DNA from: an uncultured Lachnospiraceae bacterium
GTDB lineage: Bacteria > Bacillota > Clostridia > Oscillospirales > CAG-272
Length of the DNA stretch: 60,664 nt
Assembly (NCBI GenBank): GCA_964569225.1
Contig: CAZMTU010000003.1
Coordinates: 1 to 60,664 of the forward strand
Direction: 5' to 3'
Position 1 is the first letter of the stretch. Each line of letters opens with the position of its first letter. Made by a program: the position numbers and the translations under genes. Below the pieces are notes generated by a model. That model ran no database searches. It was not told the origin of the DNA and saw only the letters and a list, made by a program, of their open reading frames with translations. Below are positions 7,054-37,714 of this stretch, one piece after another.

Positions 7054-8160
7054 TTAACTGAAGCAGGAGGAGTTGATAGCTACTACATAGCCGTTCAGGT
7101 TATTGCCGGAAATCCGGTAGCTGTGCTCATTGCCAATTACAGGAATGGAAGTGTTATCACCGGAGGATTTTACATAGTATACCCACCATTCCCAGCCGTA
7201 ACCGTCTGTAATCTTCATACGGTTTTCGTACGTGTAAACAGTGATGGCGCTGAGATACTGGGACAGATCGAATTTGTATTTATTCATCACAGCCGCATGA
7301 GCTGCCCCTACAAACCGGAAAGTAGAATACTTCTCATCAGACCGATCAATATCCCGTACATGCACAAAGCCGTACTTCCAGCAATTCGCGATAAACCAGT
7401 CGTAATACTCAGACTTCATAGTTTCATAATTCAAAGGATAAGTGCCTTTTCCGGTCCGGAAGATTTCCAGATCAAGATAATAGCCGGTGGCATGCTCCAC
7501 TGACTCTTCATCCCCCGCAACACCTGTATAATAATATGCATTGCGCACCTGAACATCGGTGTGCCCGCTTGCAGCCGCGAAATCCTTCATCATTTCCCCG
7601 AAATAAGCAACCGCTTCACTGTTGGCAAAACGATTAGAGCCTGCAAGTACATAGTTGCCGGTTCCGCCGGTCATCTTGACAAAGCCATAGTCCTGCAAAA
7701 GCTTATCTGCCGAGAGCTGCGCCATTGCGGAACGGGTAATCAATAAGGAAGGGTCTTTCTGGTAACCGTGCGTGCTGTCTAACATTAGCAACGAGCCTTC
7801 ATTCATTGCCTCCTTGCTTACTGATACTTGCGTTTCAGTAGGTGAAACCTTCACCGGCGTTTTAGAGGGCGTATCAGGCGTGTCAGGATCGTCGGTCACA
7901 TCGGGCGACAGAGTGGAAACTGACGGATCGTCAGTTCCAACAGGATCCGCCGTCGTGATAGAACCGTCGGTCGAAATCACGGGGTTCTGACTATTATCAG
8001 GCAAAAGCGTTGTTTGCGCCGGATTTTTAGATCGGGAAGATAGAATAAAAATGGTGGATATCAACACCACTACCACCAGCAGCACAAGTAAAACAGCGGC
8101 GATCAGAAAACCGGTAAATTTAGGCTTATAGACGTTTGTATCATTTGAATGCTCAGGCAT
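7054..8160 (-). CDS. Membrane-anchored M15B/VanY-like D-alanyl-D-alanine carboxypeptidase family protein
   Basis: N-terminal TM helix, a Pro/Thr/Asp-rich linker, then SVEHATGYYLDL (the S.H..G...D motif) and CWKYGFV. GGAGGG lies 6 nt upstream of the ATG. I could not see the distal EPWH-type motif. Confidence 0.6.
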   Translation of the reverse strand: MPEHSNDTNVYKPKFTGFLIAAVLLVLLVVVVLISTIFILSSRSKNPAQTTLLPDNSQNPVISTDGSITTADPVGTDDPSVSTLSPDVTDDPDTPDTPSKTPVKVSPTETQVSVSKEAMNEGSLLMLDSTHGYQKDPSLLITRSAMAQLSADKLLQDYGFVKMTGGTGNYVLAGSNRFANSEAVAYFGEMMKDFAAASGHTDVQVRNAYYYTGVAGDEESVEHATGYYLDLEIFRTGKGTYPLNYETMKSEYYDWFIANCWKYGFVHVRDIDRSDEKYSTFRFVGAAHAAVMNKYKFDLSQYLSAITVYTYENRMKITDGYGWEWWVYYVKSSGDNTSIPVIGNEHSYRISGNNLNGYVVAINSSCFS

Positions 8161-8335
8161 AAACGGCCCTCCTCAGTAAATGAATCAATTGCTTTGTAAA
8201 GTTATTATACACCCAACTTTATTAACAAATCAATAACCGGCTGGAAATTATCTGAAAAAAAGTTTATTTTTTTCCATGCTTTCCTATAATCCGAAATCAT
8301 TTTAAAGAGTCTGCCCCGTTTTTTCGTAAAAACTA

Positions 8336-8364
8336 TTGACAACCTGTTTTTTTTATGATAAAAT
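8336..8364 (+). promoter_or_regulatory. SigmaA promoter of the aro supraoperon (TTGACA-17-TAAAAT with extended TGn)
   Basis: TTGACA at 8336-8341, TG at 8356-8357 and TAAAAT at 8359-8364, about 220 nt upstream of aroF. Confidence 0.7.
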
Positions 8365-8401
8365 ATTTGCAAATATTATGTAGATAAGCTGGTAATTTAT
8401 T

Positions 8402-8482
8402 ATGAAGCGTTTTTTTCAGGCTGCATCCTATTATGTGTACTTTTATTTCTACCATGAAATAAAAGTTTTTTGTGTTGCCTGA
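8402..8482 (+). CDS. Candidate leader peptide MKRFFQAASYYVYFYFYHEIKVFCVA (5 Tyr + 5 Phe in 26 codons)
   Basis: ATG at 8402 to TGA at 8480-8482, read directly from the sequence. The run YYVYFYFY is encoded at 8429-8452. It lies between the promoter and a terminator. The Shine-Dalgarno is weak. Confidence 0.45.
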   Translation: MKRFFQAASYYVYFYFYHEIKVFCVA

Positions 8483-8511
8483 AATACTGTTCCTTATTAG
8501 ATAACCGTATT

Positions 8512-8541
8512 TTCCGCAGCAACGCCTGCGGAATTTTTATT
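8512..8541 (+). terminator. Intrinsic terminator/attenuator in the aroF leader
   Basis: TTCCGCAG caacgc CTGCGGAA (8-bp stem, 6-nt loop) followed by TTTTTATTGTT. It sits 45 nt upstream of the aroF ATG. Confidence 0.65.
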
Positions 8542-8585
8542 GTTCCGGCAGTTTTACTGCTTATAAATTAAGGAAGGAAATAACT

Positions 8586-9611
8586 ATGATTGCTGTACTG
8601 AAAAGCGAAACGACCGCTGTACAAAGAGAAAACCTCATTAAATGGCTCACCTCACAGGGACTGCAGGTCCATGTGTCTGAAGGTCAGTTTAAAACTGTGC
8701 TGGGGCTTATTGGAGATACCGCTAAGGTGGATATTGATTTGCTTTCCGGATTGGACATTGTAGAACAGGTCACCCGCATTACCGAACCCTTCAAAAACGC
8801 AAACCGCAAGTTTCATCCGGAAGACAGTATTATTACGCTGCCCACGCCTGATGGCAGCGTATCGGTAGGCGGCGGAGCATTTGCGCTTATTGCGGGTCCC
8901 TGCTCAGTAGAAACGGAAGAACAAATTTGCGGCGTAGCACTGGCAGTCAAAGCCTCCGGCGCTACAATGCTCAGGGGAGGCGCCTTCAAGCCCCGAACCT
9001 CTCCCTACGATTTTCAGGGATTGGGCGCCGAAGGACTGAAGCTACTGCTAAAGGCAAAGAAAGCGTCCGGTCTGCCTATTGTCACTGAATTAATGTCCGC
9101 GGAGCATCTTGACCTTTTTGCCGATGTGGATGTAATCCAAATAGGCGCCCGGAACATGCAGAATTTTGAACTGCTAAAAGAACTTGGACACTGCCGCAAG
9201 CCCATTCTTTTGAAACGGGGACTGTGCGCCACTCTGAAAGAACTGCTGATGAGCGCCGAATACATCATGGCAGGCGGCAATGATCATGTGCTGCTCTGCG
9301 AACGGGGAATCCGTAGCTATGATACTTACACCCGCAATCTGCTGGATCTATCCGCCGTGCCGCTTTTAAAGGAGTTATCCCACCTGCCTGTAATAGTGGA
9401 CCCCTCTCATGCCACCGGCGCCGCCCGACTGGTCAAACCAATGGCGCTGGCAGCCGCAGCCGCAGGCGCTGACGGACTAATGATTGAGGTTCACAACGAC
9501 CCTATTCACGCGCTTTGTGACGGCGCCCAGTCAGTGACCCCGGATCAGTTCGCTGACATCTCCGCCGCCGTTCACGCCGTTCGCGAAGCAGTTGCCGGAG
9601 GCCGGCTATGA
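8586..9611 (+). CDS. aroF: 3-deoxy-7-phosphoheptulonate (DAHP) synthase, type I-beta, with an N-terminal ferredoxin-like/ACT-like regulatory domain
   Basis: 341 aa with AAGGAAGGAAA upstream. About 80 aa of N-terminal extension (MIAVLKSETT..VHVSEG..KTVLGLIGD) precede the KDO8PS-like barrel (GPCSVE, GAFKPRTSPY.FQG, IVDPSH). Confidence 0.9.
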   Translation: MIAVLKSETTAVQRENLIKWLTSQGLQVHVSEGQFKTVLGLIGDTAKVDIDLLSGLDIVEQVTRITEPFKNANRKFHPEDSIITLPTPDGSVSVGGGAFALIAGPCSVETEEQICGVALAVKASGATMLRGGAFKPRTSPYDFQGLGAEGLKLLLKAKKASGLPIVTELMSAEHLDLFADVDVIQIGARNMQNFELLKELGHCRKPILLKRGLCATLKELLMSAEYIMAGGNDHVLLCERGIRSYDTYTRNLLDLSAVPLLKELSHLPVIVDPSHATGAARLVKPMALAAAAAGADGLMIEVHNDPIHALCDGAQSVTPDQFADISAAVHAVREAVAGGRL

Positions 9612-10438
9612 TCGCCGGCATTGTAGGACTGGGACTGATCGGCGGCTCGCTTGCCAAAGCCTACAAAGCGGCTGGCTGGACGGTATACGTCTGCAACCGT
9701 ACCCGCACTACCGCTGATTACGCTATTCTTTCAGGTACCGCCGACGGGATTTTGGACCAGACCACTCTTCCGCTGTGCGATATCGTACATATTTCGCTTT
9801 ATCCTGACGCATCTATTGACTATTTAAATACCAATGCCCCTCACTTTTCAAAAACCGGCATTGTCACAGATGCCTGCGGCACCAAACGCAAGATCTGTGA
9901 AGCGGGCTTTAAACTGGCTGACGAATACGGCTTTACTTTTGTAGGCGGACATCCGATGGCGGGCACTCATTTCTCTGGCTATAAATATTCCCGCGCTACC
10001 ATGTTCAACGGCGCTTCCATGATTTTGGTCCCGCCCGTATTTGATAATATTGAACTGCTGGACCGACTCAAAGCGTTGCTTGCCCCCTTGGGACTGAAAA
10101 AAATTGCTGTCACCACCGCTGAAAATCATGACCGCATGATCGCTTATACCTCTCAACTGGCTCATGTAGTGTCCAACGCCTATATTAAATCTCCCTCCGC
10201 TCAGCAGCACAAGGGATACTCTGCCGGCTCCTTCCGGGATCTCACACGAGTCGCCTGGCTGAACGAAAAAATGTGGACGGAGCTTTTTATGGAAAACGGT
10301 GATTATTTAGCGGACGAAATTGATCTTATTGCCGATAACATGAAAGCCTATTCCGAAGCCATCCGTCAAAAGGACGCCCCTCGCCTGGAAGCATTGCTGC
10401 GGGAAGGCCGCATCGCTAAAGAACAGTCGGACAGCTGA
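9608..10438 (+). CDS. tyrA: Prephenate dehydrogenase
   Basis: ATGA start/stop overlap with aroF. The N-terminal Rossmann motif is IVGLGLIGGSLA, and GGHPMAG is present. Confidence 0.88.
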   Translation: MIAGIVGLGLIGGSLAKAYKAAGWTVYVCNRTRTTADYAILSGTADGILDQTTLPLCDIVHISLYPDASIDYLNTNAPHFSKTGIVTDACGTKRKICEAGFKLADEYGFTFVGGHPMAGTHFSGYKYSRATMFNGASMILVPPVFDNIELLDRLKALLAPLGLKKIAVTTAENHDRMIAYTSQLAHVVSNAYIKSPSAQQHKGYSAGSFRDLTRVAWLNEKMWTELFMENGDYLADEIDLIADNMKAYSEAIRQKDAPRLEALLREGRIAKEQSDS

Positions 10439-10647
10439 CTGCCGCGGCACTATTGGAAGGTGCTGCCACGCGCTTGGCGCTTCTCTTCTTCAAAACATCT
10501 GACCCCGAATACCAAAAAAACGATCTAATCCGCGCAATTCGTTTGATCTATCATACACTTTTGGGAGCAGACATGATTAAGCGGTCAATTTGAAAGAGCG
10601 CCGCCTGCTCTCAAACCTTTTATATAGAAAGTCAGGAGCTGAACTCT

Positions 10648-11694
10648 ATGATTATTCCTGTTAATACCGCCCGCCCCTATGAAGTAATTATCGAACGGGG
10701 CAGTCTTGCCCGGGCAGGCGAGCTGATCCGCCCTCTGCTGGGAAACTGCCGTCTGGGCATTCTTACCGATGACACAGTAAACGAACTTTACGGCGATCAG
10801 CTGGTATCCGCCCTTTCGGCTGCCGGCTATGACGCTGTCAAATATGTGATTCCCCATGGAGAAGCCTCCAAAAATCCGGAACTTCTCTTTGCTTTTCTGA
10901 ATTTTTTGGTGGAAAATCATCTGACCCGTACCGACGCGCTGATTGCGCTGGGCGGCGGCGTAGTAGGCGATATGGCGGGGCTGGCCGCCGCGCTCTTCCT
11001 GCGGGGGGTGAAATTTATTCAGATTCCCACTACGCTGCTGGCAGCGGTAGATTCCTCAGTAGGGGGTAAAACCGCCGTCGATATTCCCGCAGGCAAAAAT
11101 CTGATAGGCGCCTTCTGGCAGCCATCCCTTGTAGTCTGCGATCCCGACACGCTTGCCAGTCTGCCCAAGGATATCCTGCGGGACGGCTGCGCGGAAGTCA
11201 TCAAATACGGCGTTATTCTCGACCGTTCGTTTTTTGACCGGCTAAAAAATCCCCTCCAGCCTCAGCTTGAAGCGGTCATCGCCCGCTGCGTGGAACTGAA
11301 ACGGGATGTGGTAAACCAGGATGAATTCGACACCGGTCTGAGAGGACTTTTGAACTTCGGACACACCTTAGGACACGGCATAGAAAAGGAGTCCCATTTT
11401 TCTGTTTCTCACGGCGCGGCGGTAGCGAAAGGCATGGCGCTGGCCGCCAAACTGGCGGTACACATGAAGCTTTGTCCGCAGGCATGCGCGGACGAGTTGA
11501 CCGAGTTGCTACTGCAATACGGTTTTGATCTGACCTGTCCTTTTACAGCGGATGCGCTCTTTGCCGCTTCTCTCTCCGACAAAAAACGTTCGGGCGATCA
11601 TATTACCCTCGTTTTACCTGAATCCATCGGTCACTGCATTCTGCACAAGCTTCCATGCGTTGAACTGCTGCCAATCTTAAAGGAAATCATTTGA
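10648..11694 (+). CDS. aroB: 3-dehydroquinate synthase
   Basis: AGGAG upstream. Motifs GGGVVGDMAGLAAA, IQIPTTLLA.VDSSVGGKTAVD and FGHT.GHGIE. Confidence 0.92.
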   Translation: MIIPVNTARPYEVIIERGSLARAGELIRPLLGNCRLGILTDDTVNELYGDQLVSALSAAGYDAVKYVIPHGEASKNPELLFAFLNFLVENHLTRTDALIALGGGVVGDMAGLAAALFLRGVKFIQIPTTLLAAVDSSVGGKTAVDIPAGKNLIGAFWQPSLVVCDPDTLASLPKDILRDGCAEVIKYGVILDRSFFDRLKNPLQPQLEAVIARCVELKRDVVNQDEFDTGLRGLLNFGHTLGHGIEKESHFSVSHGAAVAKGMALAAKLAVHMKLCPQACADELTELLLQYGFDLTCPFTADALFAASLSDKKRSGDHITLVLPESIGHCILHKLPCVELLPILKEII

Positions 11695-11735
11695 TTTTAA
11701 AACCTTAAACCAACGGTAAAAAATGAAATAAGAAT

Positions 11736-12062
11736 ATGCGCTTAGTACAAGACGCGGGCAACCGCCCTTGGATATTAATAGCACCTTCAAGAGAGTCCCC
11801 GGTATCCGACATTAAACCTGCCAAAGCATCAGCAGCGCAAAATCAGGTTCACGGAAATCCAAGCTACACTATGACGACCAATATTTCCAAACCTCTCATT
11901 GCAATGGAATTTGGAGATCAAATGAAATTAATTGATAAAAATCACCGTCTATATAAGACAGTAAAGACAGGAAAGCAGACTATAGAAACGTATTTTCTTA
12001 TCGACTCCAAACATATACAATATATTGGAATTTATGCCGAAATGCTTTACGAAAATTTATAG
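11736..12062 (+). CDS. Doubtful orphan ORF inside an AT-rich insert (no recognisable family)
   Basis: 108-aa ORF from the track with no convincing RBS. The second half is strongly AT-rich compared with the flanking aro genes. It may be non-coding. Confidence 0.2.
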   Translation: MRLVQDAGNRPWILIAPSRESPVSDIKPAKASAAQNQVHGNPSYTMTTNISKPLIAMEFGDQMKLIDKNHRLYKTVKTGKQTIETYFLIDSKHIQYIGIYAEMLYENL

Positions 12063-12107
12063 CTATTTTTTACAAGTATACTTATACCGCTTTTATGAAA
12101 GCCGCGA

Positions 12108-12130
12108 AAACTGGAGCGGCGCTCCAGTTT
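12108..12130 (+). terminator. GC-rich hairpin AAACTGGAGC ggc GCTCCAGTTT followed by GGATTT, 37 nt upstream of aroA
   Basis: Perfect 10-bp inverted repeat read from the sequence. Its role (internal terminator, attenuator or processing site) is unknown. Confidence 0.35.
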
Positions 12131-12166
12131 GGATTTCCTCAATACAATCAAACGGAGATATCAAAC

Positions 12167-13492
12167 ATGGATATTCAATTTTCGCCAAGTACGCTGCGGG
12201 GAAACGTGACAGCGCCGGTATCCAAATCGGCAGCCCATCGACTGCTGATTGCCGCCGCGCTGGCAGACCGCCCCACCAAACTGTACTGTCCGGGCAGTAA
12301 TCAGGATATTGACGCCACAATCGCCTGCCTGACGGCGCTGGGCGCCGTCATTGCGCGGCAGGAACAGTGGCTTACTGTTACGCCTATCGCCGGCGGCAAT
12401 CCAGCGTCCGCAGCTCCTGCACTGAACTGCGGGGAAAGCGGCTCTACCCTGCGCTTTTTGCTGCCGGTGGCAGCGGCGCTGGGAAATGCCGTTACCTTTA
12501 TCGGCAGCGGCCGGCTGCCCAGCCGTCCGCTCTCTCCACTGTATGAGGAACTGGCTGCACACGGTGCCAAAATGAGTTTAAACGGACAGATGCCTCTCTC
12601 GGTAAAGGGTCCGCTCTCGCCCGGAAAGTTTACATTAGCTGCCAATGTGTCCTCTCAGTTTGTCAGCGGTCTGCTCTTTGCCCTTCCCTTATTAAATGCA
12701 CCTTCTGAAATCGTACTTACCGGCAAAATTGAAAGCATTCACTACATAGAAATGACCTTGCAAGCCCTTGCCGCCTTTGGCATTAAACCTACCCCAACTG
12801 TCGCCGGATGGTTGTTCAGCGGAAAAGAGCGCTACACCTCTCCCGGTGAACTGAAAGTAGAAGGCGATTGGTCAAACGCCGCCTTTTGGCTTTGCGCGGG
12901 CGCGATCGGCGGCGGTCCGATTACTGTTACCGGCTTGTCCCCTGACTCACTGCAAGGAGATAAATCAGTCACAAACCTCCTCCAACAGTTCGGCGCGGCG
13001 GTCACAGAAACAGACGGCAGCTGTACTGTATCAGCCGCCAATCTGCACAGCATCGACATCGACGGCGCGCAGATTCCCGATCTGATCCCCATTTTGGCGG
13101 TCACTGCTGCCTTTGCGGAAGGAAGCACTACCTTCCGGAATATCGGCCGCCTGCGGCTGAAGGAAAGTGATCGGATAGAAACAGTCCGCGCGCTGCTGGG
13201 CGCCATAGGCGTGAATTGTAAAGCCACTGAAAATGATCTGACGGTCTATGGTCAAAGCGCTTTATCTGCCGCTTTGGGGGAGACAGCTTCCCGCGCTGCC
13301 TGTGAAATTGATTCCTTCAACGATCACCGCATCGCCATGGCCGCGGCAGTGGCGGCTTCCCGCACTCCTTTATCCGTACTGCTCCACGGCGCGGAAGCGG
13401 TGCGTAAATCCTATCCTGATTTTTATGAACGGTTTATATCGCTCGGCGGAATTGCCTGTCAACGCATCGCCGCTGCCGAATCTGACCGGTAA
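12167..13492 (+). CDS. aroA: 3-phosphoshikimate 1-carboxyvinyltransferase (EPSP synthase)
   Basis: Start moved to MDIQFSP, with GGAGA 8 nt upstream. Motifs include APVSKSAAHRLLIAAALA, CGESGSTLRFLLP and LKESDR. Confidence 0.9.
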   Translation: MDIQFSPSTLRGNVTAPVSKSAAHRLLIAAALADRPTKLYCPGSNQDIDATIACLTALGAVIARQEQWLTVTPIAGGNPASAAPALNCGESGSTLRFLLPVAAALGNAVTFIGSGRLPSRPLSPLYEELAAHGAKMSLNGQMPLSVKGPLSPGKFTLAANVSSQFVSGLLFALPLLNAPSEIVLTGKIESIHYIEMTLQALAAFGIKPTPTVAGWLFSGKERYTSPGELKVEGDWSNAAFWLCAGAIGGGPITVTGLSPDSLQGDKSVTNLLQQFGAAVTETDGSCTVSAANLHSIDIDGAQIPDLIPILAVTAAFAEGSTTFRNIGRLRLKESDRIETVRALLGAIGVNCKATENDLTVYGQSALSAALGETASRAACEIDSFNDHRIAMAAAVAASRTPLSVLLHGAEAVRKSYPDFYERFISLGGIACQRIAAAESDR

Positions 13493-13505
13493 AAGGAGAA
13501 TTTAT

Positions 13506-14597
13506 ATGGCTTCCACATTCGGCAAAAATATTCAGATTTCCATTTTCGGGCAATCCCATTCAGCCGCCATCGGCGTTTCGATAGACGGTCTGCCGGCGGG
13601 CGAGTACATCGACCTTGCCGCGCTTCAGGCATTTATGTCCCGCCGAGCACCCGGTCAGGGTGCTTACAGTACCACCCGAAAGGAAGCGGATATTCCCGAG
13701 TTTATCTCCGGTGTGCTGGAAAACGGCGACCGATTGATTACCTGCGGCGCACCGCTGGCAATGATTATCCGCAATACCAACACCCGCTCCTCAGATTACT
13801 CGCTTTTTAAAGATTCTCCTCGTCCGGGTCACGCCGATTACACCGCTGAGCTTCGCTATCACGGCTTTCAGGATGTCCGAGGCGGCGGTCATTTTTCCGG
13901 TCGGCTGACAGCGCCTATCTGTGCCGCCGGCGGTATTTGCGGACAGATCCTTGCCCGCCGAGGCGTTACGATAGGCGCTCACATTTATGCGATCGGCGGC
14001 ATTGCCGATACTCCCTATGACGAGCTGATAAGCGACCCCGTTTGGCTGAAAAAAACCTCTGACGGCTTTCCGGTACTGAATGAAGCCGCGGGAAAAGCAA
14101 TGCTGGAGAAGATTGAAGCTTGCCGAATGGACAGCGACAGCATCGGCGGCATTGTGGAATGCGCGGTAATCGGACTGCCCGCCGGTATCGGTTCCCCCAT
14201 GTTTGACGGAGTGGAAAACAAGCTGGCGCAAATTATTTTTGGCATTCCCGCTGTGAAAGGATTAGAATTCGGCGCAGGATTTACCGCCGCCGCTTTTCGG
14301 GGCAGCGAAAACAATGACGCCTACTATATGGATGACGACACAGTGAAAACACGCACCAACCGTGCAGGGGGCATTTTAGGGGGCATAACTAACGGTATGC
14401 CTCTGATTTTCCGAGTTGCCTTCAAGCCCACTCCCTCTATTTTCCGTCCTCAACAAAGTGTGTCACTGTCTGATCGCTGCGATAAGACGCTGACTGTTGT
14501 CGGACGTCACGATCCCTGCATCGTTCCCCGGGCAGTACCGGTAGTGGAAGCCGCTGCCGCGATTGCCCTGCTCGATCTGCTCTGCGACCAAAATTAA
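13506..14597 (+). CDS. aroC: Chorismate synthase
   Basis: Start at MASTFGKN, with AAGGAGA 7 nt upstream. The longer track ORF overlaps aroA. Motifs FGQSHS, RPGHAD, GGG.FSGR and GRHDPC. Confidence 0.92.
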   Translation: MASTFGKNIQISIFGQSHSAAIGVSIDGLPAGEYIDLAALQAFMSRRAPGQGAYSTTRKEADIPEFISGVLENGDRLITCGAPLAMIIRNTNTRSSDYSLFKDSPRPGHADYTAELRYHGFQDVRGGGHFSGRLTAPICAAGGICGQILARRGVTIGAHIYAIGGIADTPYDELISDPVWLKKTSDGFPVLNEAAGKAMLEKIEACRMDSDSIGGIVECAVIGLPAGIGSPMFDGVENKLAQIIFGIPAVKGLEFGAGFTAAAFRGSENNDAYYMDDDTVKTRTNRAGGILGGITNGMPLIFRVAFKPTPSIFRPQQSVSLSDRCDKTLTVVGRHDPCIVPRAVPVVEAAAAIALLDLLCDQN

Positions 14598-14704
14598 GCT
14601 GGAATTTCAGACATTCCGATTTTAAAACGCTTGAAGTAAAGGGCTTTTTCAAAAAAATGTTTGAAAGACTCGGGGCGAAGCCCCCTATATAAATGGAGAA
14701 TCAC

Positions 14705-15847
14705 ATGGATATTTCACAACTTCGCGATGAAATTAACGGACTCGATGAGGAAATCTGCCGCCTGTTCGTCCGCCGGATGAATGTGGCGCTGGACATTGCC
14801 AAATATAAAAAAGAAAATCACCTTCCGGTGCTTGACGCTTCCCGGGAACGGGCGGTGCTTCAAAAGGTTTCCAAGCTCACCGGTGAAACGCTGGAAGTCT
14901 ACGCCCGCACCCTCTATCAGACCATGCTCGATGTTTCCCGCGCTTATCAGTCCGACCTGATCGGGGAAAAATCGCAGCTAAGTCAAACTGTTCAAGCGCT
15001 GGCCGCAAAAGCGCCTGCCGCCTTTCCCAAACGCGCTACCGTTTCCTGCCAGGGCTGCGAAGGCGCTTATTCTCAGGCTGCCGCCGAAAAGCTGTTTCAA
15101 GCGCCTGAAATTATTTTTCACGCCGACTGGGAGGGAGTGTTTAAATCGGTCAGCGGAGCACTTTCCCAGTACGGTATTCTCCCCATTGAAAATTCCACCG
15201 CAGGCTCGGTCAACCGCATTTATGACCTATTGGCAGAATACAATGTAAGCATTGTTCGCTCGGTACGGCTGAAAATAGATCACAATTTGCTGGCACTGCC
15301 CGGCGCTAAGCTGGAATCCATTCGAGAAATTTACTCCCACGAACAGGCGATCAGTCAGTGCAGCGACCTGCTCTCAAAGTTAAAAAACGCTCACGCCATT
15401 GCCTGCCCCAATACAGCCGTTGCCGCGAAGCAGGTAGCGGAGGGAGGCGATTACACCAAAGCAGCCTTATCCAGCAGACTGTGCGCTGAACTGTACGGAC
15501 TGGTTCCGCTGGTGGAAAACGCTCAAAACAGCGATGCCAATTATACTCGCTTTATCTGTATTGCTAAAGAGCCTCAGATATTCCCCGGCGCCAACCGCAC
15601 CAGTCTGATTATTACCGTATCAAACAAACCCGGCTCGCTTTTCCGTATCCTTTCCCGCTTTAATGCCATCGGTGCTAACCTGATTAAACTTGAAAGCCGC
15701 CCCATTCCCGGCAGGGATTTTGATTTCACCTTCTATTTTGACGTAGAAGAATCGGTACACTCTCCTGAATTTGCCCGTTTACTCTGCGAGCTGGAGCAGG
15801 CAGGCGAAAAATTCCGCTATTTAGGTACTTATTCGGAAGTGATCTAA
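14705..15847 (+). CDS. pheA: Bifunctional chorismate mutase / prephenate dehydratase (P-protein) with a C-terminal ACT domain
   Basis: The AroQ-type CM N-terminus is LR.EI..LD.EI..L...R. The PDT core contains PIENS.AGSV. The ACT-like tail is TSLIITVSNKPGSL. GGAGA lies upstream of the ATG at 14705. Confidence 0.9.
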   Translation: MDISQLRDEINGLDEEICRLFVRRMNVALDIAKYKKENHLPVLDASRERAVLQKVSKLTGETLEVYARTLYQTMLDVSRAYQSDLIGEKSQLSQTVQALAAKAPAAFPKRATVSCQGCEGAYSQAAAEKLFQAPEIIFHADWEGVFKSVSGALSQYGILPIENSTAGSVNRIYDLLAEYNVSIVRSVRLKIDHNLLALPGAKLESIREIYSHEQAISQCSDLLSKLKNAHAIACPNTAVAAKQVAEGGDYTKAALSSRLCAELYGLVPLVENAQNSDANYTRFICIAKEPQIFPGANRTSLIITVSNKPGSLFRILSRFNAIGANLIKLESRPIPGRDFDFTFYFDVEESVHSPEFARLLCELEQAGEKFRYLGTYSEVI

Positions 15848-15887
15848 TCTTTATACGTAGAATTTTACGAAAAGGAAGCGCTTGTAC

Positions 15888-17159
15888 ATGAATTCCAATC
15901 AACATACCTACGGGCTATTGGGGGAGGTCCTCGCCCACAGCTTTTCTCCTCTCATCCACAACCGTTTAGGTAATTCTCATTATGATCTAATCGAGCAAAA
16001 AAAGGAAACGGTTGCCGACTTTTTCAAAGAAAGAGCCTTTTCCGCGATCAATGTAACCATTCCCTATAAAAAGGACGCGCTTGCCGCCTGTGATCGGGTG
16101 TCGCCGCGCGCAGCCGCTATTGGCAGTGTGAACACAGTCGTAAAGGCTGCGAACGGGCAGCTTTCAGGCTACAATACCGACGCCTTCGGCTTTGCTTACC
16201 TGCTGTACCGAAGCGGTATTTCCCCTATGCGCAAAAAATGTCTGGTACTGGGCAGCGGCGGCAGTTCGGTAATGGTGCAGTATATGCTGACAAAAATGGG
16301 AGCTTCTGAAGTAGTTGTCATCTCCCGCAGCGGAGAAAATAACTATAACAATCTCAGCCGCCATGCCGATGCAGGGCTGATCGTTAATACCACCCCAGTA
16401 GGCATGTATCCCAAAACAGGCGCGGCGCCTGTGGAGCTGGACCGTTTTCATAACCTTACCGGCGTAGTAGACCTAATCTACAATCCCGCCCGAACCAAGC
16501 TGCTGCTGGATGCCATGAGACTGTCAATCCCCTGCGCCGATGGACTGCCCATGCTGGTGGCACAAGCTAAGCTGGCGCATCTGCTTTTCTTCGGAAAAAC
16601 GGCAAACGATGACTGTCCGCCTGAAAAGGATAGCGAAATCGAAACCATTACCGCAGAAATCCGCGCCAAAACTATGAATATTTTGCTGGTGGGAATGCCC
16701 TCCTGCGGCAAAAGCACGATCGGTCAGCTGCTCTCCGAAGCCACTGGCAGGGAATTGATTGACACCGATCAAAAAATTGTTCAAATGACCGGCAAATCCA
16801 TTCCAGAACTGTTTGAAGCAGGAGGCGAAGCTTACTTTCGGTCATTGGAACATCAGGTTGCGGAGGAATTTACAAAGCAAAGCGGAAAAATTATTGCTAC
16901 CGGCGGCGGTATCGTCACCCATCCTGAAAATCTCGACCTGCTTCGTCAGAACAGTCTGATTTTCTTCATTAATCGTCCCATTGAACAGCTTTCCACTGAC
17001 GGACGGCCTCTCTCACAATCCAATCGCCTGTCCGACCTGCTGCGCGTCCGTCTTCCTCTTTACCGCAGCGTAGCGCATTATGAAATTCCCTTCACCAGTT
17101 CACCTGAGGTTGCAAATGCAATCCGTAAACGGGTAACTGAACTTGCCAAAAAAATATGA
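15888..17159 (+). CDS. aroE/aroK: Fused shikimate dehydrogenase / shikimate kinase
   Basis: The N-terminal half has SFSP.IHN, NVTIPYK and NTD. The C-terminal half has the P-loop LVGMPSCGKSTIG and DTD. The ATG at 15888 follows AAGGAAG. Confidence 0.88.
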   Translation: MNSNQHTYGLLGEVLAHSFSPLIHNRLGNSHYDLIEQKKETVADFFKERAFSAINVTIPYKKDALAACDRVSPRAAAIGSVNTVVKAANGQLSGYNTDAFGFAYLLYRSGISPMRKKCLVLGSGGSSVMVQYMLTKMGASEVVVISRSGENNYNNLSRHADAGLIVNTTPVGMYPKTGAAPVELDRFHNLTGVVDLIYNPARTKLLLDAMRLSIPCADGLPMLVAQAKLAHLLFFGKTANDDCPPEKDSEIETITAEIRAKTMNILLVGMPSCGKSTIGQLLSEATGRELIDTDQKIVQMTGKSIPELFEAGGEAYFRSLEHQVAEEFTKQSGKIIATGGGIVTHPENLDLLRQNSLIFFINRPIEQLSTDGRPLSQSNRLSDLLRVRLPLYRSVAHYEIPFTSSPEVANAIRKRVTELAKKI

Positions 17160-17261
17160 TTTTTTCTGTTACATGCGCCAGTCCTGATTTTAGTTAATAA
17201 AGCATTGCTAAAAAGGGAGGGCACGCCTATTACATACCATTTATTTCAGGGAGGCAATATC

Positions 17262-17681
17262 ATGAAGCTGCTGATTATTAACGGTCCAAACCTAAACCTG
17301 TTAGGACTCAGGGAACCCACTATTTACGGTACGCAGAATTATGCCGCGCTGGTGGATTATTTGAACCGGTCTGCCGATGAACTTGGCCATACCATCGAAA
17401 TCTTTCAATCAAACCATGAAGGCATGATCGTAGATAAAATTCAGGCGGCCTACGGTGTTTTTGACGGTATTATTATTAATCCCGCCGCCTATACCCACAC
17501 CAGTGTGGCAATCTTAGACGCGCTGAAGGCCGTAGCTATCCCCACGGTGGAAGTACATCTTTCGGATATTTCCGTTCGAGAAGCCTTCCGTCAATTTTCT
17601 TATGTATCGCTTGCCGCTGTAAAAACCATCTGCGGCAAAGGATTTGCCGGCTATCGGGAAGCTATGATGTATTTTAAATAA
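17262..17681 (+). CDS. aroQ: Type II 3-dehydroquinate dehydratase
   Basis: Start at MKLLIINGPNLNLLG.REP.IYG, with GGAGG 7 nt upstream. Motifs SNHEG and NPAAYTHTS. Confidence 0.92.
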   Translation: MKLLIINGPNLNLLGLREPTIYGTQNYAALVDYLNRSADELGHTIEIFQSNHEGMIVDKIQAAYGVFDGIIINPAAYTHTSVAILDALKAVAIPTVEVHLSDISVREAFRQFSYVSLAAVKTICGKGFAGYREAMMYFK

Positions 17682-17739
17682 ACTTTGTAAGAGAGTTTCC
17701 GGTAAATTCTACGCAATAAAGCTTATGGGTAATAAAGAA

Positions 17740-17765
17740 AGAGTTCGGTGTTAAACCGAACTCTC
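17740..17765. repeat. Copy 1 of a 26-bp direct repeat containing a hairpin (AGAGTTCGG tgttaaa CCGAACTCT)
   Basis: Identical 26/26 to 17914-17939. It is preceded by the A-rich AATAAAGAA, so it reads as a terminator on the minus strand. Confidence 0.85.
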
Positions 17766-17807
17766 AGACTGAAGATAAAACCCCATTGGGGCTTTGCCCC
17801 AAACCCT

Positions 17808-17839
17808 ATTTAGGGGACTTTTTAAAAAGTCCCCTAAAT
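17808..17839. repeat. Perfect 32-nt palindrome ATTTAGGGGACTTTTT/AAAAAGTCCCCTAAAT
   Basis: Read directly from the sequence. It lies inside the 148-nt segment bounded by the 26-bp direct repeats. Confidence 0.85.
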
Positions 17840-17913
17840 ACCTTCAAAAACATTTAAGTAATTGGCATGTTTCTATGTTTTAAATTTTAAAACTTCAATT
17901 TTTCTACACGCAG

Positions 17914-17939
17914 AGAGTTCGGTGTTAAACCGAACTCTC
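17914..17939. repeat. Copy 2 of the 26-bp direct repeat/hairpin
   Basis: Identical to 17740-17765. It is followed by TCTTTATTAATTTT, so it reads as a terminator on the plus strand. Confidence 0.85.
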
Positions 17940-17974
17940 TCTTTATTAATTTTGAGTATCATTCCATTCGCGAT

Positions 17975-20629
17975 TTAGTGTACGCCATAAATAGCTGTGG
18001 ATATTTCAAAGCTTGACGGATAAGTGAGATCAGGAGGCGTATTGCCGGTTGTCACCAGCGTTCCGTCCGACAAAAGCGCAGTAACCGATTGACTGCCGGC
18101 GCTTACCCAAATGACATTTGTCATTCCGGATACATCGCCGTTTGTCTGATCACCGCTTGCCAGCAGCACTGTTCCGTCTGACGTTAACCCTACCGTACAG
18201 CTTTCACCGGCTGAAATCTGGATCACATTCTGCCATTCATCCACATCACAGCGTCCGGTATTGGAACTGCCGGCTGCCACTACGGTTCCGTCTGCCTTCA
18301 ATCCTACACTGTGAAGGAAACCGGCGGAAATCATTACGATATCCTCCCACCCGGTGGTATTGCACTGACCGCTGGTACTCATACCTGTTGCGCAGACAGT
18401 TCCATCCTCCAACAAAACCAGTGTGTGATAACCGCCTGCCGCTATGGCTACCACATGAGAGAACTGCCCCACATCGCACTGCTTTTCAGAGCTTCGCCCC
18501 GCAGCAACCACAGAACCGTCTGATTTCAGCCCTACCGTATGATAGTCGCTAGCATCAATAGCAACAATATCCTTCCAATCCGATACTTCACACTGTCCGT
18601 AAGAATTATCGCCGAACGCTAATACTGTACCGTCATTCAGAAGAATAACAGTGGTCAGCTTGCTGCACTTCACGGATACTACCGCTTTGTTGATTCCGGC
18701 AGCATAATAGGCTTTGTCACCGTCAAAGAAAGCATTTCCATATACATCAATCACGCTTACAAACTTGTCGGAATCCATTACACTGGCATGAATTGCCTGT
18801 TTATCCGCAAAAGAAAGATAGGAAAAGAAGGTAGGTAAATGCTTTTTAATAGAGGGCTTTGTAAACTGAGCAAGCAGCACATTGATAGCATCCTCATTGC
18901 CGCTCATGCCTACATAATCAGCGGCACGGTCATAGTTTTGCTGACTGATATAGTAGGTCACAGCCGCTTCCGCGGAGGAAGCAATCAGCGCCTGATCATT
19001 TATTCCCTTGGCCATAGCGATCGCCTTGTCAAAATCATACTTGGCGGTATAATAAGCAATAGCGGTTCGGGTAATCTGATCGGGCGTAGTGGCGGTTTGA
19101 TAGGTAGTGGCAGTCTGAATAGCCATATCAAAATCGTTTGCTTTCAGCTGATTTTGAACCAGTCCTTCGGCAGCCTCTGCCTTTTTAACACTCCGATCAC
19201 TTTCGGACAGCTTATCGGCATATTGAATTGCACCGGCATAATCGCCCTTTTCCAGCGCTTCCGTATAGAGCTGGAGGTAAAGCGACGCGATCTGCTCACT
19301 GTCATTTAACTCCTCGGCATATTTCAGCGCTTTAGAAAGATTGGGATTTGTGACCGTATAATACTGAAGCGCCGCGTTCAGCACCTCATTGATCAGTTCG
19401 TCACCGCATTCGCTCATTCTGGCAAAGCCCAGCGCATTATCAAAATCGTTTTGCTCAAGATAGGTACGAACAATCTTTTCGCTTTCGTTTCCCTGCGGTA
19501 CCTGCGTTGTAGTCGGCGATTCGGTTTCAACAGGTCCGGTCGTCTGAGCCGGCGTATTGCTGCGGGCAACTAACGTGATAATCAGCAATGTAACAATTAC
19601 GATAAGCAGCAACGCACTGGCAGCAATTGCGGAAATCAGCCCTATTTTCAGCTTATCGGGCTTTTTCGCAACAGCCGCGGGCGGAATTTTCTCAGTCGGC
19701 TCGTCGATCGCTTTGTCTTCACTATCCTTATTTTCGGAAGTGCTTTCAGAAATAGATTCAACAGCTTCTGAGCCGTACGCTGCTGATGCGCCAGCGGAAA
19801 ATACACCGGTGTGATATTCAGTAGTCGCCTCGGTTGCCGGCGATCCGATATCTACACCGCTATCGGCAGATACAGCCGGATCGGTACCGCTTACGCTGTC
19901 GGCATTAGGAAGTGCGTCAGCATCGCCGACAGTCTTAGCCAATTGGACCGTATTGGCAGCGGCCGCAGCGGAAACAGCGGAAGCCGCTGCCTTTGGCGCG
20001 AAAAAGCTGAACAGCTCCGATTTAGATGCGCCGCAGGTAGTACAATGATCCGATTCGCAAAACTCCCCGCAGGTACAGCGCCATATAATTTCTGTCAGCT
20101 CTTCCGGCTCATAAAGCGCAGTAGATCCAAAACGGCTGGAAATGGTCTCCATTTCCTTTTTATGCTTTTTCTGAAGCGGAACCGCATCACCCGGCAGATC
20201 AAAGAAATCCCCTCTCAAGTAATCGGTAACTGTTCCATCTGTAAAACGGATCCGGCTGATGTAAAGCTCAAGATTCTCCACCCGCAGTCCGCTTTCACAG
20301 TCAGGTGTAAGCCGAAAAGTAATATGAGCGCCGCTTGCCAGCCCCTCTTCCCCAAACCGAAGCAGCTTAGCAAAATACTCATTTTTAGTACAGGGAATGA
20401 GCGTTCCCTGCGCGTCAAACAATCGAATAACAATAATTGCGGATTCGACTGTATCATCGGTCAGCCCGCCGCCGCCCATTTTTTCTACCGTCAGGCAGAT
20501 TTGCGCGCAACCGGCATCATAATTATATTCCAGATCGGTGTGGTCAATGGTCAGCGGACAGCGCAGCGAAACACGCTTACATTTTGTCAGCTTGACCTTT
20601 ATTCCCTTTTGTTTTTTGGAATCTTTCAT
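17975..20629 (-). CDS. Single-pass membrane protein: cytoplasmic zinc-ribbon region, helical repeat region, C-terminal RCC1-like beta-propeller repeats
   Basis: Start moved to the second ATG, because AGGAG abuts the first one. Features are WRCTCGEFCESDHCTTCG, the TM helix LISAIAASALLLIVIVTLLIITLVA, and about seven repeats of the type DGTV.A.G.....GQC.V..W..I..I.AG..H. Confidence 0.75.
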   Translation of the reverse strand: MKDSKKQKGIKVKLTKCKRVSLRCPLTIDHTDLEYNYDAGCAQICLTVEKMGGGGLTDDTVESAIIVIRLFDAQGTLIPCTKNEYFAKLLRFGEEGLASGAHITFRLTPDCESGLRVENLELYISRIRFTDGTVTDYLRGDFFDLPGDAVPLQKKHKKEMETISSRFGSTALYEPEELTEIIWRCTCGEFCESDHCTTCGASKSELFSFFAPKAAASAVSAAAAANTVQLAKTVGDADALPNADSVSGTDPAVSADSGVDIGSPATEATTEYHTGVFSAGASAAYGSEAVESISESTSENKDSEDKAIDEPTEKIPPAAVAKKPDKLKIGLISAIAASALLLIVIVTLLIITLVARSNTPAQTTGPVETESPTTTQVPQGNESEKIVRTYLEQNDFDNALGFARMSECGDELINEVLNAALQYYTVTNPNLSKALKYAEELNDSEQIASLYLQLYTEALEKGDYAGAIQYADKLSESDRSVKKAEAAEGLVQNQLKANDFDMAIQTATTYQTATTPDQITRTAIAYYTAKYDFDKAIAMAKGINDQALIASSAEAAVTYYISQQNYDRAADYVGMSGNEDAINVLLAQFTKPSIKKHLPTFFSYLSFADKQAIHASVMDSDKFVSVIDVYGNAFFDGDKAYYAAGINKAVVSVKCSKLTTVILLNDGTVLAFGDNSYGQCEVSDWKDIVAIDASDYHTVGLKSDGSVVAAGRSSEKQCDVGQFSHVVAIAAGGYHTLVLLEDGTVCATGMSTSGQCNTTGWEDIVMISAGFLHSVGLKADGTVVAAGSSNTGRCDVDEWQNVIQISAGESCTVGLTSDGTVLLASGDQTNGDVSGMTNVIWVSAGSQSVTALLSDGTLVTTGNTPPDLTYPSSFEISTAIYGVH

Positions 20630-37429: not shown

Positions 37430-37714
37430 GTTCCTCTCCTTTCTTCCTGCCGTCGCAGGGATGGAATTTTTTAGGAGGGCAAATTACACAAACTGTTCAT
37501 TTCAGGTTAAACTCAGTAAATTTGGCTCAAAAAGCAGCACTTTTTCTCTCATGTAAAGCCATCCCTTTGGAATACGTTTCTTATTTTACTACAGTTTACA
37601 AAAAAAAGCAACCCCTTTTCGTCAATTTTATGAATTTTTTTATTATCTTTTTTTGAAAAAATGTCTTTACAGCCGCCGGAAACAAAATAATTTTCCTGTA
37701 AAGGGAAAATTCCC

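Follow-up and report, generated by a model that had tools for sequence, protein, structure and literature searches.

The window analysed here is a 60,664-nucleotide stretch of DNA (contig CAZMTU010000003.1, assembly GCA_964569225.1) from an uncultured Lachnospiraceae bacterium, and the element in question is the RNA leader directly upstream of aroF, the first gene of a long operon for aromatic amino acid biosynthesis. This leader is very probably a transcription attenuator of the ribosome-mediated (leader-peptide) kind, with charged tRNA-Tyr and tRNA-Phe as its signals and aroF-tyrA-aroB-aroA-aroC-pheA-aroEK-aroQ as the operon under its control, a reading drawn from sequence comparison. The element, which is approximately 145 nt long and is conserved in more than 100 loci (genomes plus metagenome contigs), appears to represent an undescribed family of Tyr/Phe leaders that is widespread in gut and rumen Clostridia. 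A preliminary description of the window had already proposed attenuation with the classical 1:2 / 2:3 / 3:4 pairing logic, and that logic is borne out by covariation of the helices, by locus-specific complementarity between segments 2 and 3, by 55 of 61 folds of truncated transcripts, and by the geometry of the leader. The parts of the leader in the window, with P1 and P2 named from the minimum free energy (MFE) fold, are as follows.

8336-8364, + strand: promoter, with -35 TTGACA at 8336-8341, a 17-nt spacer and an extended -10 TGaTAAAAT at 8356-8364.
8388-8396, + strand: weak Shine-Dalgarno-like stretch (GCUGGUAAU), located 6-14 nt 5′ of the leader ATG.
8402-8482, + strand: leader open reading frame (ORF), 26 codons plus a TGA stop, encoding MKRFFQAASYYVYFYFYHEIKVFCVA.
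8414-8426, + strand: P1 5′ strand ("segment 1"), UUUCAGGC-U-GCAU in the MFE fold, made of the Phe-Gln-Ala-Ala codons just before the run.
8429-8452, + strand: regulatory codon run UAU UAU GUG UAC UUU UAU UUC UAC (Y Y V Y F Y F Y), 7 of 8 codons aromatic, and the proposed stall zone of the ribosome.
8439-8466, + strand: P2 apical hairpin, 11 bp in the MFE fold, with ACUUUUAUUUC at 8439-8449 (Tyr/Phe codons), loop UACCAU, and GAAAUAAAAGU at 8456-8466.
8472-8487, + strand: "segment 2," comprising the P1 3′ strand GUGU-U-GCCUGAAA at 8472-8484 with the stop codon at 8480-8482, and the predicted antiterminator 5′ strands at 8473-8478 and 8481-8487.
8507-8521, + strand: "segment 3," the predicted antiterminator 3′ strands GUAUUUU (8507-8513) and GCAGCA (8516-8521), which overlap the terminator left arm (8512-8519).
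8512-8541, + strand: predicted intrinsic terminator (segments 3:4), UUCCGCAG-CAACGC-CUGCGGAA followed by UUUUUAUU.
8586-17681, + strand: operon under the proposed control, consisting of aroF, tyrA, aroB, a 108-aa ORF, aroA, aroC, pheA, aroE-aroK and aroQ.

The promoter, the leader ORF with its aromatic run, the exact complementarity around the stop codon and the terminator ahead of aroF all lie where the preliminary description had placed them. A pattern scan scores the promoter at 11 of 12 matches plus the upstream TG, which makes it the sole 11/12 match and the best promoter-like site within 8200-18200. Transcription would begin near 8371, and the leader ATG at 8402 would then sit about 30 nt downstream of the start site. 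The encoded peptide MKRFFQAASYYVYFYFYHEIKVFCVA contains 5 Tyr and 5 Phe. Shortly before the aromatic run, TTTCAGGC (8414-8421) is exactly complementary to GCCTGAAA (8477-8484), and the stop TGA (8480-8482) falls within the latter. In the MFE fold these positions pair as helix P1, which is extended by pairing of 8423-8426 with 8472-8475. The terminator reads TTCCGCAG-caacgc-CTGCGGAA over 8512-8533 and then TTTTTATT, and it was also found by pattern scan. The stretch with seven aromatic codons in eight has the highest such density in all six frames of the window, and the leader RNA as a whole (8372-8545) folds at −44.6 kcal/mol compared with −27.5 ± 3.2 kcal/mol for 200 dinucleotide shuffles (z = −5.4).

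The strongest evidence comes from related loci. The comparison set comprised 80 genome loci whose DAHP synthase is 61-76% identical to that of the window, nearly all of which are labelled Clostridia, Oscillospiraceae, Ruminococcaceae, Lachnospiraceae or Anaerovoracaceae. A second set comprised 80 independent metagenome loci, several of them on contigs too short upstream to hold the element. A covariance model, R1, was built from 51 relatives with its three helices set by hand and with the window excluded from training. R1 finds exactly one copy per locus, on the same strand and directly 5′ of aroF, in 61 of the 80 genome loci, and it matches approximately 48 of the 80 metagenome loci, mostly labelled Clostridia. 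Many of the genomes and contigs that bear the element come from human and animal guts, and its bearers include the cultivable Pseudoflavonifractor sp. AF19-9AC, Angelakisella massiliensis and Hominicoprocola fusiformis. In the window R1 matches 8400-8544 with 69.9 bits and E = 4e-12 over model positions 1-156 of 156; this match ends 42 nt upstream of the aroF ATG, and no other significant match exists across the 60.7 kb. The surroundings are conserved as well. An extended -10 is present in 30 of 61 family members at a median of 33 nt 5′ of the leader ATG (6.6% in shuffles), and an intrinsic terminator follows 64 of 65 leader ORFs, 15-60 nt past the stop and 20-60 nt before aroF. The consensus of a MAFFT alignment summarizes this arrangement as ATG..(15 nt)..TTTGCAGCTG-ATAT-TTTTACTTTTACTTT...AAGTAA-AGT-GATTTGTGCTGCAAA...GC-CCGCAG-(loop)-CTGCGG-GC-TTTTTTTT.

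Such conservation bears on whether the ORF arose by chance in an AT-rich 5′ untranslated region ahead of a simple terminator or a T-box, an idea that now has almost no probability left to it. U-rich intergenic DNA does readily encode Phe and Tyr, and windows with 6 of 8 aromatic codons occur elsewhere in the stretch, for example at 37623. A chance ORF, however, would not be expected to give E = 4e-12 with a model trained on other genomes, or to recur in more than 100 loci with covarying helices. No T-box was found at any threshold either: RF00230 gave no match at the gathering score or at E ≤ 10, and a leader of approximately 145 nt is shorter than a T-box. More broadly, the Rfam 15 families, those for tRNAs, riboswitches and T-boxes included, all stay below their gathering scores in the window, the same search over 39 related loci returned a single tRNA, and no Rfam leader family (Phe_leader, RF01743, or the Trp, His, Thr and Leu leaders) matches 8150-8650 even at E ≤ 10. 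Chance and a T-box or riboswitch identity are thereby excluded, and a covariance-model match of the latter kind was among the outcomes that the preliminary description had named as telling against attenuation. A possible second copy of the element near 37.6 kb, marked by the aromatic 6/8 window and by weak R1 matches (E = 0.22 and 4.7), was considered separately and rejected; no leader ORF is present there, and the site is a U-rich promoter region before an undecaprenyl-diphosphatase-like gene.

Whether the ORF is translated is central to the attenuator reading, and several properties of the family indicate a coding sequence. An 8-codon window with at least 6 aromatic codons occurs in the sense orientation in 71% of the 80 aroF upstream regions, compared with 2% of dinucleotide shuffles and 7.5% of reverse complements, so that conservation of the aromatic codons, which had been set in advance as a test of the idea, is present. 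A short ORF is found in 65 of the 80 genome loci (for example, MKRNIFAAEYFYFYFINKS and MSLFVFAAAYFYFYFIMSQSKSDLCCK), and the peptides of 60 relatives, 16-41 aa in length, consist of 18% Phe and 16% Tyr (34% together) with only 0.2% Trp. The run comprises 6-10 alternating Tyr and Phe codons that also form a helix strand, with the consensus UAU UUU UAC UUU UAC UUU. A frame test on 62 members, in which the frame was not chosen by aromatic content, gave an aromatic fraction over the run of 0.71 in the ATG frame compared with 0.20 and 0.17 in the other two. An ATG occupies the R1 start columns in 49 of these members, the phase from the ATG columns to P2 is identical in 57, and all 62 are free of stops through the codon run. 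The spacing from ATG to P1 is mostly 15 nt and otherwise 12, 18, 21 or 24 nt, all multiples of three. The Shine-Dalgarno match in relatives is usually 4-6 nt long, and most carry GGAG, GAGG or AGGA.

These data weigh on an explanation in which RNA alone does the work, with P1/P2 and the UAC/UUU repeats bound by a small ligand or by a protein acting in trans (TRAP-like or PyrR-like) that would set the choice of terminator or antiterminator, and with the ORF an untranslated by-product of a U-rich helix. Such an arrangement draws on real features of the element: the Tyr/Phe codons are one strand of a covarying helix, and a U/A-rich repeat could therefore persist for structure alone; the Shine-Dalgarno sequence of the window is weak; and the C-terminal half of the peptide is unconserved and the stop position variable. 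But an RNA that binds a ligand or protein needs no ATG, phase or aromatic conservation, and here the ATG and Shine-Dalgarno sequence stand at a fixed distance in most members with differences in multiples of three, the phase is kept in 57 of 62 members and the run is stop-free in all 62, substitutions in the run preserve aromatic identity, and no Rfam family matches. We consider this explanation unlikely.

The paired regions change in a manner that preserves pairing, as the attenuation model had called for. In the family, the basal helix P1 has the consensus UUUGCAGC:GCUGCAAA and the apical helix P2 the consensus ACUUUUACU:AGUAAAAGU; the 5′ strand of P1 is made of the Phe-Ala-Ala codons that precede the run, and the 5′ strand of P2 is the Tyr/Phe run itself. 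In the MAFFT alignment, which was not fitted to R1, P1, P2 and the terminator are 75.6% paired compared with 38-48% in slid controls, and 189 both-side changes are seen compared with 77 ± 8.5 in shuffles. The alignment fitted to R1 gives 83% pairing compared with 37-49% in slid controls, with a covariation score of 0.443 against 0.205 ± 0.009 that was reached by none of 500 shuffles. All three helices contribute: P1 shows both-side variation at 7-8 of 8 pairs, P2 reaches 86% pairing and exchanges U-A for A-U and C-G, and in the terminator stem 94% pairing goes with changes on both sides of each of the 9 pairs. The window itself offers an example, as its P1 (UUUCAGGC:GCCUGAAA) differs from the consensus at three adjacent pairs that have changed on both sides (G-C to C-G, C-G to A-U, and A-U to G-C). 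At P2 pair 50-90, U-A or U-G alternates with A-U, a change that turns Phe UUU into Tyr UAU and is compensated on the opposite strand, which indicates that coding and pairing constraints act on the same bases. The preliminary description had the aromatic codons merely downstream of segment 1; the codons additionally form the 5′ strand of P2 (8439-8449). A further basal helix in the MFE fold that would sequester the leader ribosome-binding site (8389-8405 with 8493-8507) was rejected, having no support in the family (mean z of −0.9, and −0.5 in the window).

Sharing of bases between codons and helices is also seen in the conserved residues of the peptide. An N-terminal motif, F-A-A-E-Y-F-Y-F, recurs across many relatives, and by itself it would suit a translated arrest peptide of the TnaC type, which stalls on a free amino acid, or a small hydrophobic functional protein. 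The conserved residues coincide with the helices, however: Ala-Ala is GCAGCU in P1, its partner Cys-Cys is UGCUGC, and recurrent endings such as ...DLCCK arise from in-frame reading of the P1 3′ strand (UGCUGC). Conservation at the protein level is absent from the C-terminal halves, peptide length ranges over 16-41 aa, and the five leader peptides compared with Pfam and NCBIfam gave no match. Regulation of the TnaC type would also have the wrong sign, as it would switch on a biosynthetic operon whose product is already plentiful. A functional or arrest peptide is thus very improbable. Where the peptide ends also varies. In L001, the closest relative (L001:2840-2975), and in approximately half of the family overall, the UAA within the P2 3′ strand (AGUAAAAGU) is an in-frame stop, whereas in the rest, including the window (8456-8484), this UAA is out of frame and translation would end in or after the P1 3′ strand.

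The 3′ strands of P2 and P1, taken together as segment 2, have a sequence complementary to the terminator 5′ arm. Segment 2, whose family consensus is AUUUGUGCUGCAAA, was originally drawn as GTGTTGCCTG (8472-8481) pairing with CAGCAACGC (8517-8525). Both sequences are present at those positions, and this bulged 9-bp pairing is the best single duplex. A better antiterminator is nevertheless provided by two helices that flank the stop codon (8480-8482), in which 8473-8478 pairs with 8516-8521 and 8481-8487 with 8507-8513; it takes 6 of the 8 nt of the terminator left arm, whereas the single duplex takes only 3. Folding of the truncated transcript 8458-8522 yields this two-helix antiterminator at −13.5 kcal/mol. 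Across the family, the best duplex at each locus between the region after the run and the terminator 5′ arm plus loop averages −14.5 kcal/mol compared with −9.7 kcal/mol for shuffles (mean z of −2.2, with 61% of loci below −1.64), and the window gives −10.1 compared with −5.9 kcal/mol. Segment 2 pairs more strongly with the terminator arm of its own locus (−12.3 kcal/mol) than with non-cognate arms (−9.1 kcal/mol; Wilcoxon p ~1e-8), which indicates that the complementarity is kept locus by locus and not merely via a common motif.

A kinetic model was then represented by a transcript spanning the P2 3′ strand through the terminator loop, the situation behind a stalled ribosome with the right arm not yet made. 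In this model 5 nt or more of the terminator 5′ arm are taken up by segment 2 in 55 of 61 loci, the window included. The mean number of captured 5′-arm positions is 8.4 of 13 and falls to 3.6 once segment 2 is withheld; in the window, 10 of 13 aligned positions are sequestered compared with 3 without segment 2. The geometry of the leader fits this picture. Segment 1 starts a median of 14 nt before the first aromatic codon and segment 2 a median of 16.5 nt after the run, so that a ribosome stalled in the run could occlude segment 1 and P2 while segment 2, whose onset sits just past the leading edge of the stalled ribosome, is exposed.

Taken in order, the steps of the proposed mechanism would be as follows. 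The leader RNA from about 8371 would fold into a long P1 plus P2 hairpin with the Tyr/Phe codons on its 5′ strand. When both Tyr and Phe are ample, the ribosome would run to the UGA (8480-8482) inside the P1 3′ strand and cover segment 2, or P1/P2 would refold after its release; in either case the terminator hairpin (8512-8533) with its U-tract would form and transcription would stop 45 nt before aroF. When Tyr or Phe is scarce, the ribosome would stall within 8429-8452 and keep the 5′ strands of P1 and P2 open, and free segment 2 (8473-8487) could pair with 8507-8521 while the terminator still lacks its right arm. This antiterminator would block the terminator and RNA polymerase would read into aroF. 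Because Tyr and Phe codons alternate, a shortage of either amino acid should suffice, which amounts to OR logic; Trp would not be sensed by the leader. That the ORF is translated, that ribosomes stall on it, that transcripts end at the hairpin and that the cell responds in this way are inferences from the architecture.

Several observations weigh against the attenuator reading or complicate it. The Shine-Dalgarno sequence of the window, whose weakness had been recognized from the start, has a predicted anti-Shine-Dalgarno pairing energy of −4.4 kcal/mol, ranking 52 of 58 in a family with a median of −6.5, so that efficient translation is not assured. The computed energies are −23.0 kcal/mol for the P1/P2 domain, −13.5 for the antiterminator and −12.2 for the terminator, and the antiterminator is thus predicted to be just marginally stronger than the terminator hairpin. 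When antiterminator columns are held in a fixed register (alignment A1), they are 66.6% paired and lack covariation; this test was superseded by the per-locus duplexes compared with shuffles and non-cognate partners. Masked folding, which the preliminary description had put forward, gave a divided outcome. The switch appears in the truncated-transcript model, whereas, when 8372-8545 is folded at full length and a 29-nt mask stands in for the ribosome at each aromatic codon, the terminator stays at 7 of 8 stall positions, and in the window the switch is seen only with the 5′ side removed and the terminator 3′ arm withheld or with a 5′ boundary at 8458. Survival of the terminator in masked equilibrium folds means that the switch must be kinetic, as in classical attenuators. 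The position of the stop relative to segment 2 ranges from −23 to +41 nt across the family; a ribosome at the stop would consequently cover segment 2 in 38 of 60 members, and the others would need refolding of P1/P2. Finally, no relative with an aroF closer than 76% identity was found in genomes, or closer than 72% in metagenomes, and the exact aroF protein of the window is absent from the records searched. With these points weighed, none of the comparative tests named in advance as able to refute attenuation did so, and the attenuator reading is supported by sequence comparison.

The architecture has well-known counterparts. In Escherichia coli, pheL-pheA, pheM-pheST and trpL each combine a short ORF with clustered codons for the end product, three helices that exclude one another, and an intrinsic terminator ahead of the first structural gene, and the regulatory codons of these leaders lie on the 5′ strand of the first hairpin. 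Those leaders belong to Proteobacteria and read a single amino acid each, whereas the window leader would read two and, unlike pheL, pheM and trpL, would control both branches together with the entire common pathway. Among systems studied by experiment, the nearest is the aroR-aroF attenuator of Corynebacterium glutamicum, which also mixes Phe and Tyr codons. According to the summary of Neshat et al. 2014 in PMC11802643, its regulatory codons are Phe-Tyr-Phe, ribosome stalling raises read-through, and the system responded experimentally to Phe and not Tyr. The likeness is one of description, and on that same account aroR-aroF is Actinobacterial with three regulatory codons, whereas the Clostridial family has 6-10 alternating ones.

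The closest computational report is uORFC-13-1, an upstream ORF found solely upstream of aroF and right before an intrinsic terminator in Acholeplasma and unassigned metagenome sequences (24 representatives), with a Phe-encoding U-run ("at least one" Phe codon) and an extra base-paired substructure, for which attenuation was proposed (PMC8632094). Compared by description only, it has the aroF context, the terminator and the Phe codons in common with the window. Within Firmicutes, precedents for leader-peptide attenuation alongside T-boxes come from Lactococcus lactis, with its Leu/phe leader (RF01743; PMC2864571), and from bacilli, with the His-leader of hisS/hisZ (PMC2965389). These control other genes in Lactobacillales and Bacillales and differ in sequence, and RF01743 has no match in the window. 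A Clostridial Tyr/Phe leader of aroF is not described in the full-text literature searched, which leaves most subscription journals outside its coverage. The expectation in the preliminary description that such a mechanism would be unusual in Clostridia therefore holds for that literature and fails for the genomes themselves, since the element is common in them.

The operon downstream corresponds to what the leader would sense. As the preliminary description had stated, its genes, with pheA and tyrA among them, cover the common pathway and lead to exactly two end products, Tyr and Phe. The first gene, aroF, has its ATG at 8586 and encodes a DAHP synthase, the pheA product has chorismate mutase, prephenate dehydratase and ACT domains (CM-PDT-ACT), and a strong terminator at 17912-17940 closes the operon. 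The genes from aroF to aroQ are probably co-transcribed, and the order aroF>tyrA>aroB>aroA is kept behind the leader in most relatives that carry it. The DAHP synthase (8586-9611) has an N-terminal ferredoxin-like domain, PF18152 (residues 1-67). Domains of this type provide allosteric Tyr/Phe feedback in Thermotoga-type enzymes; if PF18152 acts likewise here, the first step of the pathway would be under both allosteric and attenuation control.

Other observations on the locus are recorded here for completeness. The 108-aa ORF between aroB and aroA (11736-12062, + strand) has no match in Pfam or NCBIfam, and tblastn found no counterpart in related aroF loci, where aroA directly follows aroB; the ORF may be spurious or lineage-specific. 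The gap between tyrA and aroB (10439-10647) leaves 209 nt untranslated inside the operon, with only a weak terminator-like hairpin (10464-10479) and a 9/12 promoter-like site (10625-10652), and is a possible internal control point. After aroQ, the intergenic region 17682-17974 carries the hairpin AGAGTTCGGTGTTAAACCGAACTCT twice (~17740-17764 and 17913-17937), and between the two copies are the palindromes CCCCATTGGGG...CCCCAAACCC (~17781-17806) and TTTAGGGGACTTTTTAAAAAGTCCCCTAAA (17810-17839). These repeats could be a repeated terminator or a small element resembling a miniature inverted-repeat transposable element (MITE) or a repetitive extragenic palindrome (REP). The divergent gene upstream of the leader (7054-8160, − strand) encodes a 368-aa protein with an N-terminal membrane anchor and a Thr/Pro/Asp-rich linker; it has no Pfam domain and is weakly similar to VanY-type D-Ala-D-Ala carboxypeptidases (NCBIfam E ~2e-12, far below cutoff). 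Among the related loci, five metagenome-assembled genomes labelled as non-Firmicutes carry an aroF 64-74% identical to that of the window, namely L002, L003 and L013 (Bacteroidaceae), L010 (Alloprevotella) and L060 (Lentisphaerae). The leader is missing in the first three and present in L010 (52.9 bits), and L060 has an aromatic-rich upstream ORF with no significant R1 match. Mis-binned contigs or horizontal transfer of the aro locus could be the cause.

Beyond the single locus, we favour, with some reserve, the view that the window copy belongs to a widespread and previously undescribed class of dual Tyr/Phe attenuators that acts as the principal transcriptional regulator of the shikimate/aro supraoperon across gut and rumen Clostridia (Oscillospiraceae, Ruminococcaceae, Acutalibacteraceae, and some Lachnospiraceae and Anaerovoracaceae), with sensor codons that double as a strand of the regulatory helix. 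Textbooks place leader-peptide attenuation mainly in Proteobacteria and Actinobacteria and assign the control of aromatic amino acids in Firmicutes to T-boxes and TRAP. The leader family would be somewhat surprising for specialists in Firmicutes regulation. Since the mechanism would be classical, the value of the finding lies in distribution and annotation and not in a new principle: if the mechanism is as proposed, a family missing from Rfam, Pfam and NCBIfam would be added to annotation. Such leaders would also provide an example of protein-coding and RNA-pairing constraints on shared nucleotides, and would give reporter design in anaerobes a natural sensor with two inputs (Tyr OR Phe). For the organisms themselves, classical ribosome-mediated attenuation, and not a T-box or TRAP, would govern aromatic synthesis in a large part of the Firmicutes, and this would explain how Tyr and Phe synthesis is tuned in abundant commensals and hence how the supply of shikimate intermediates and aromatic metabolites is set.

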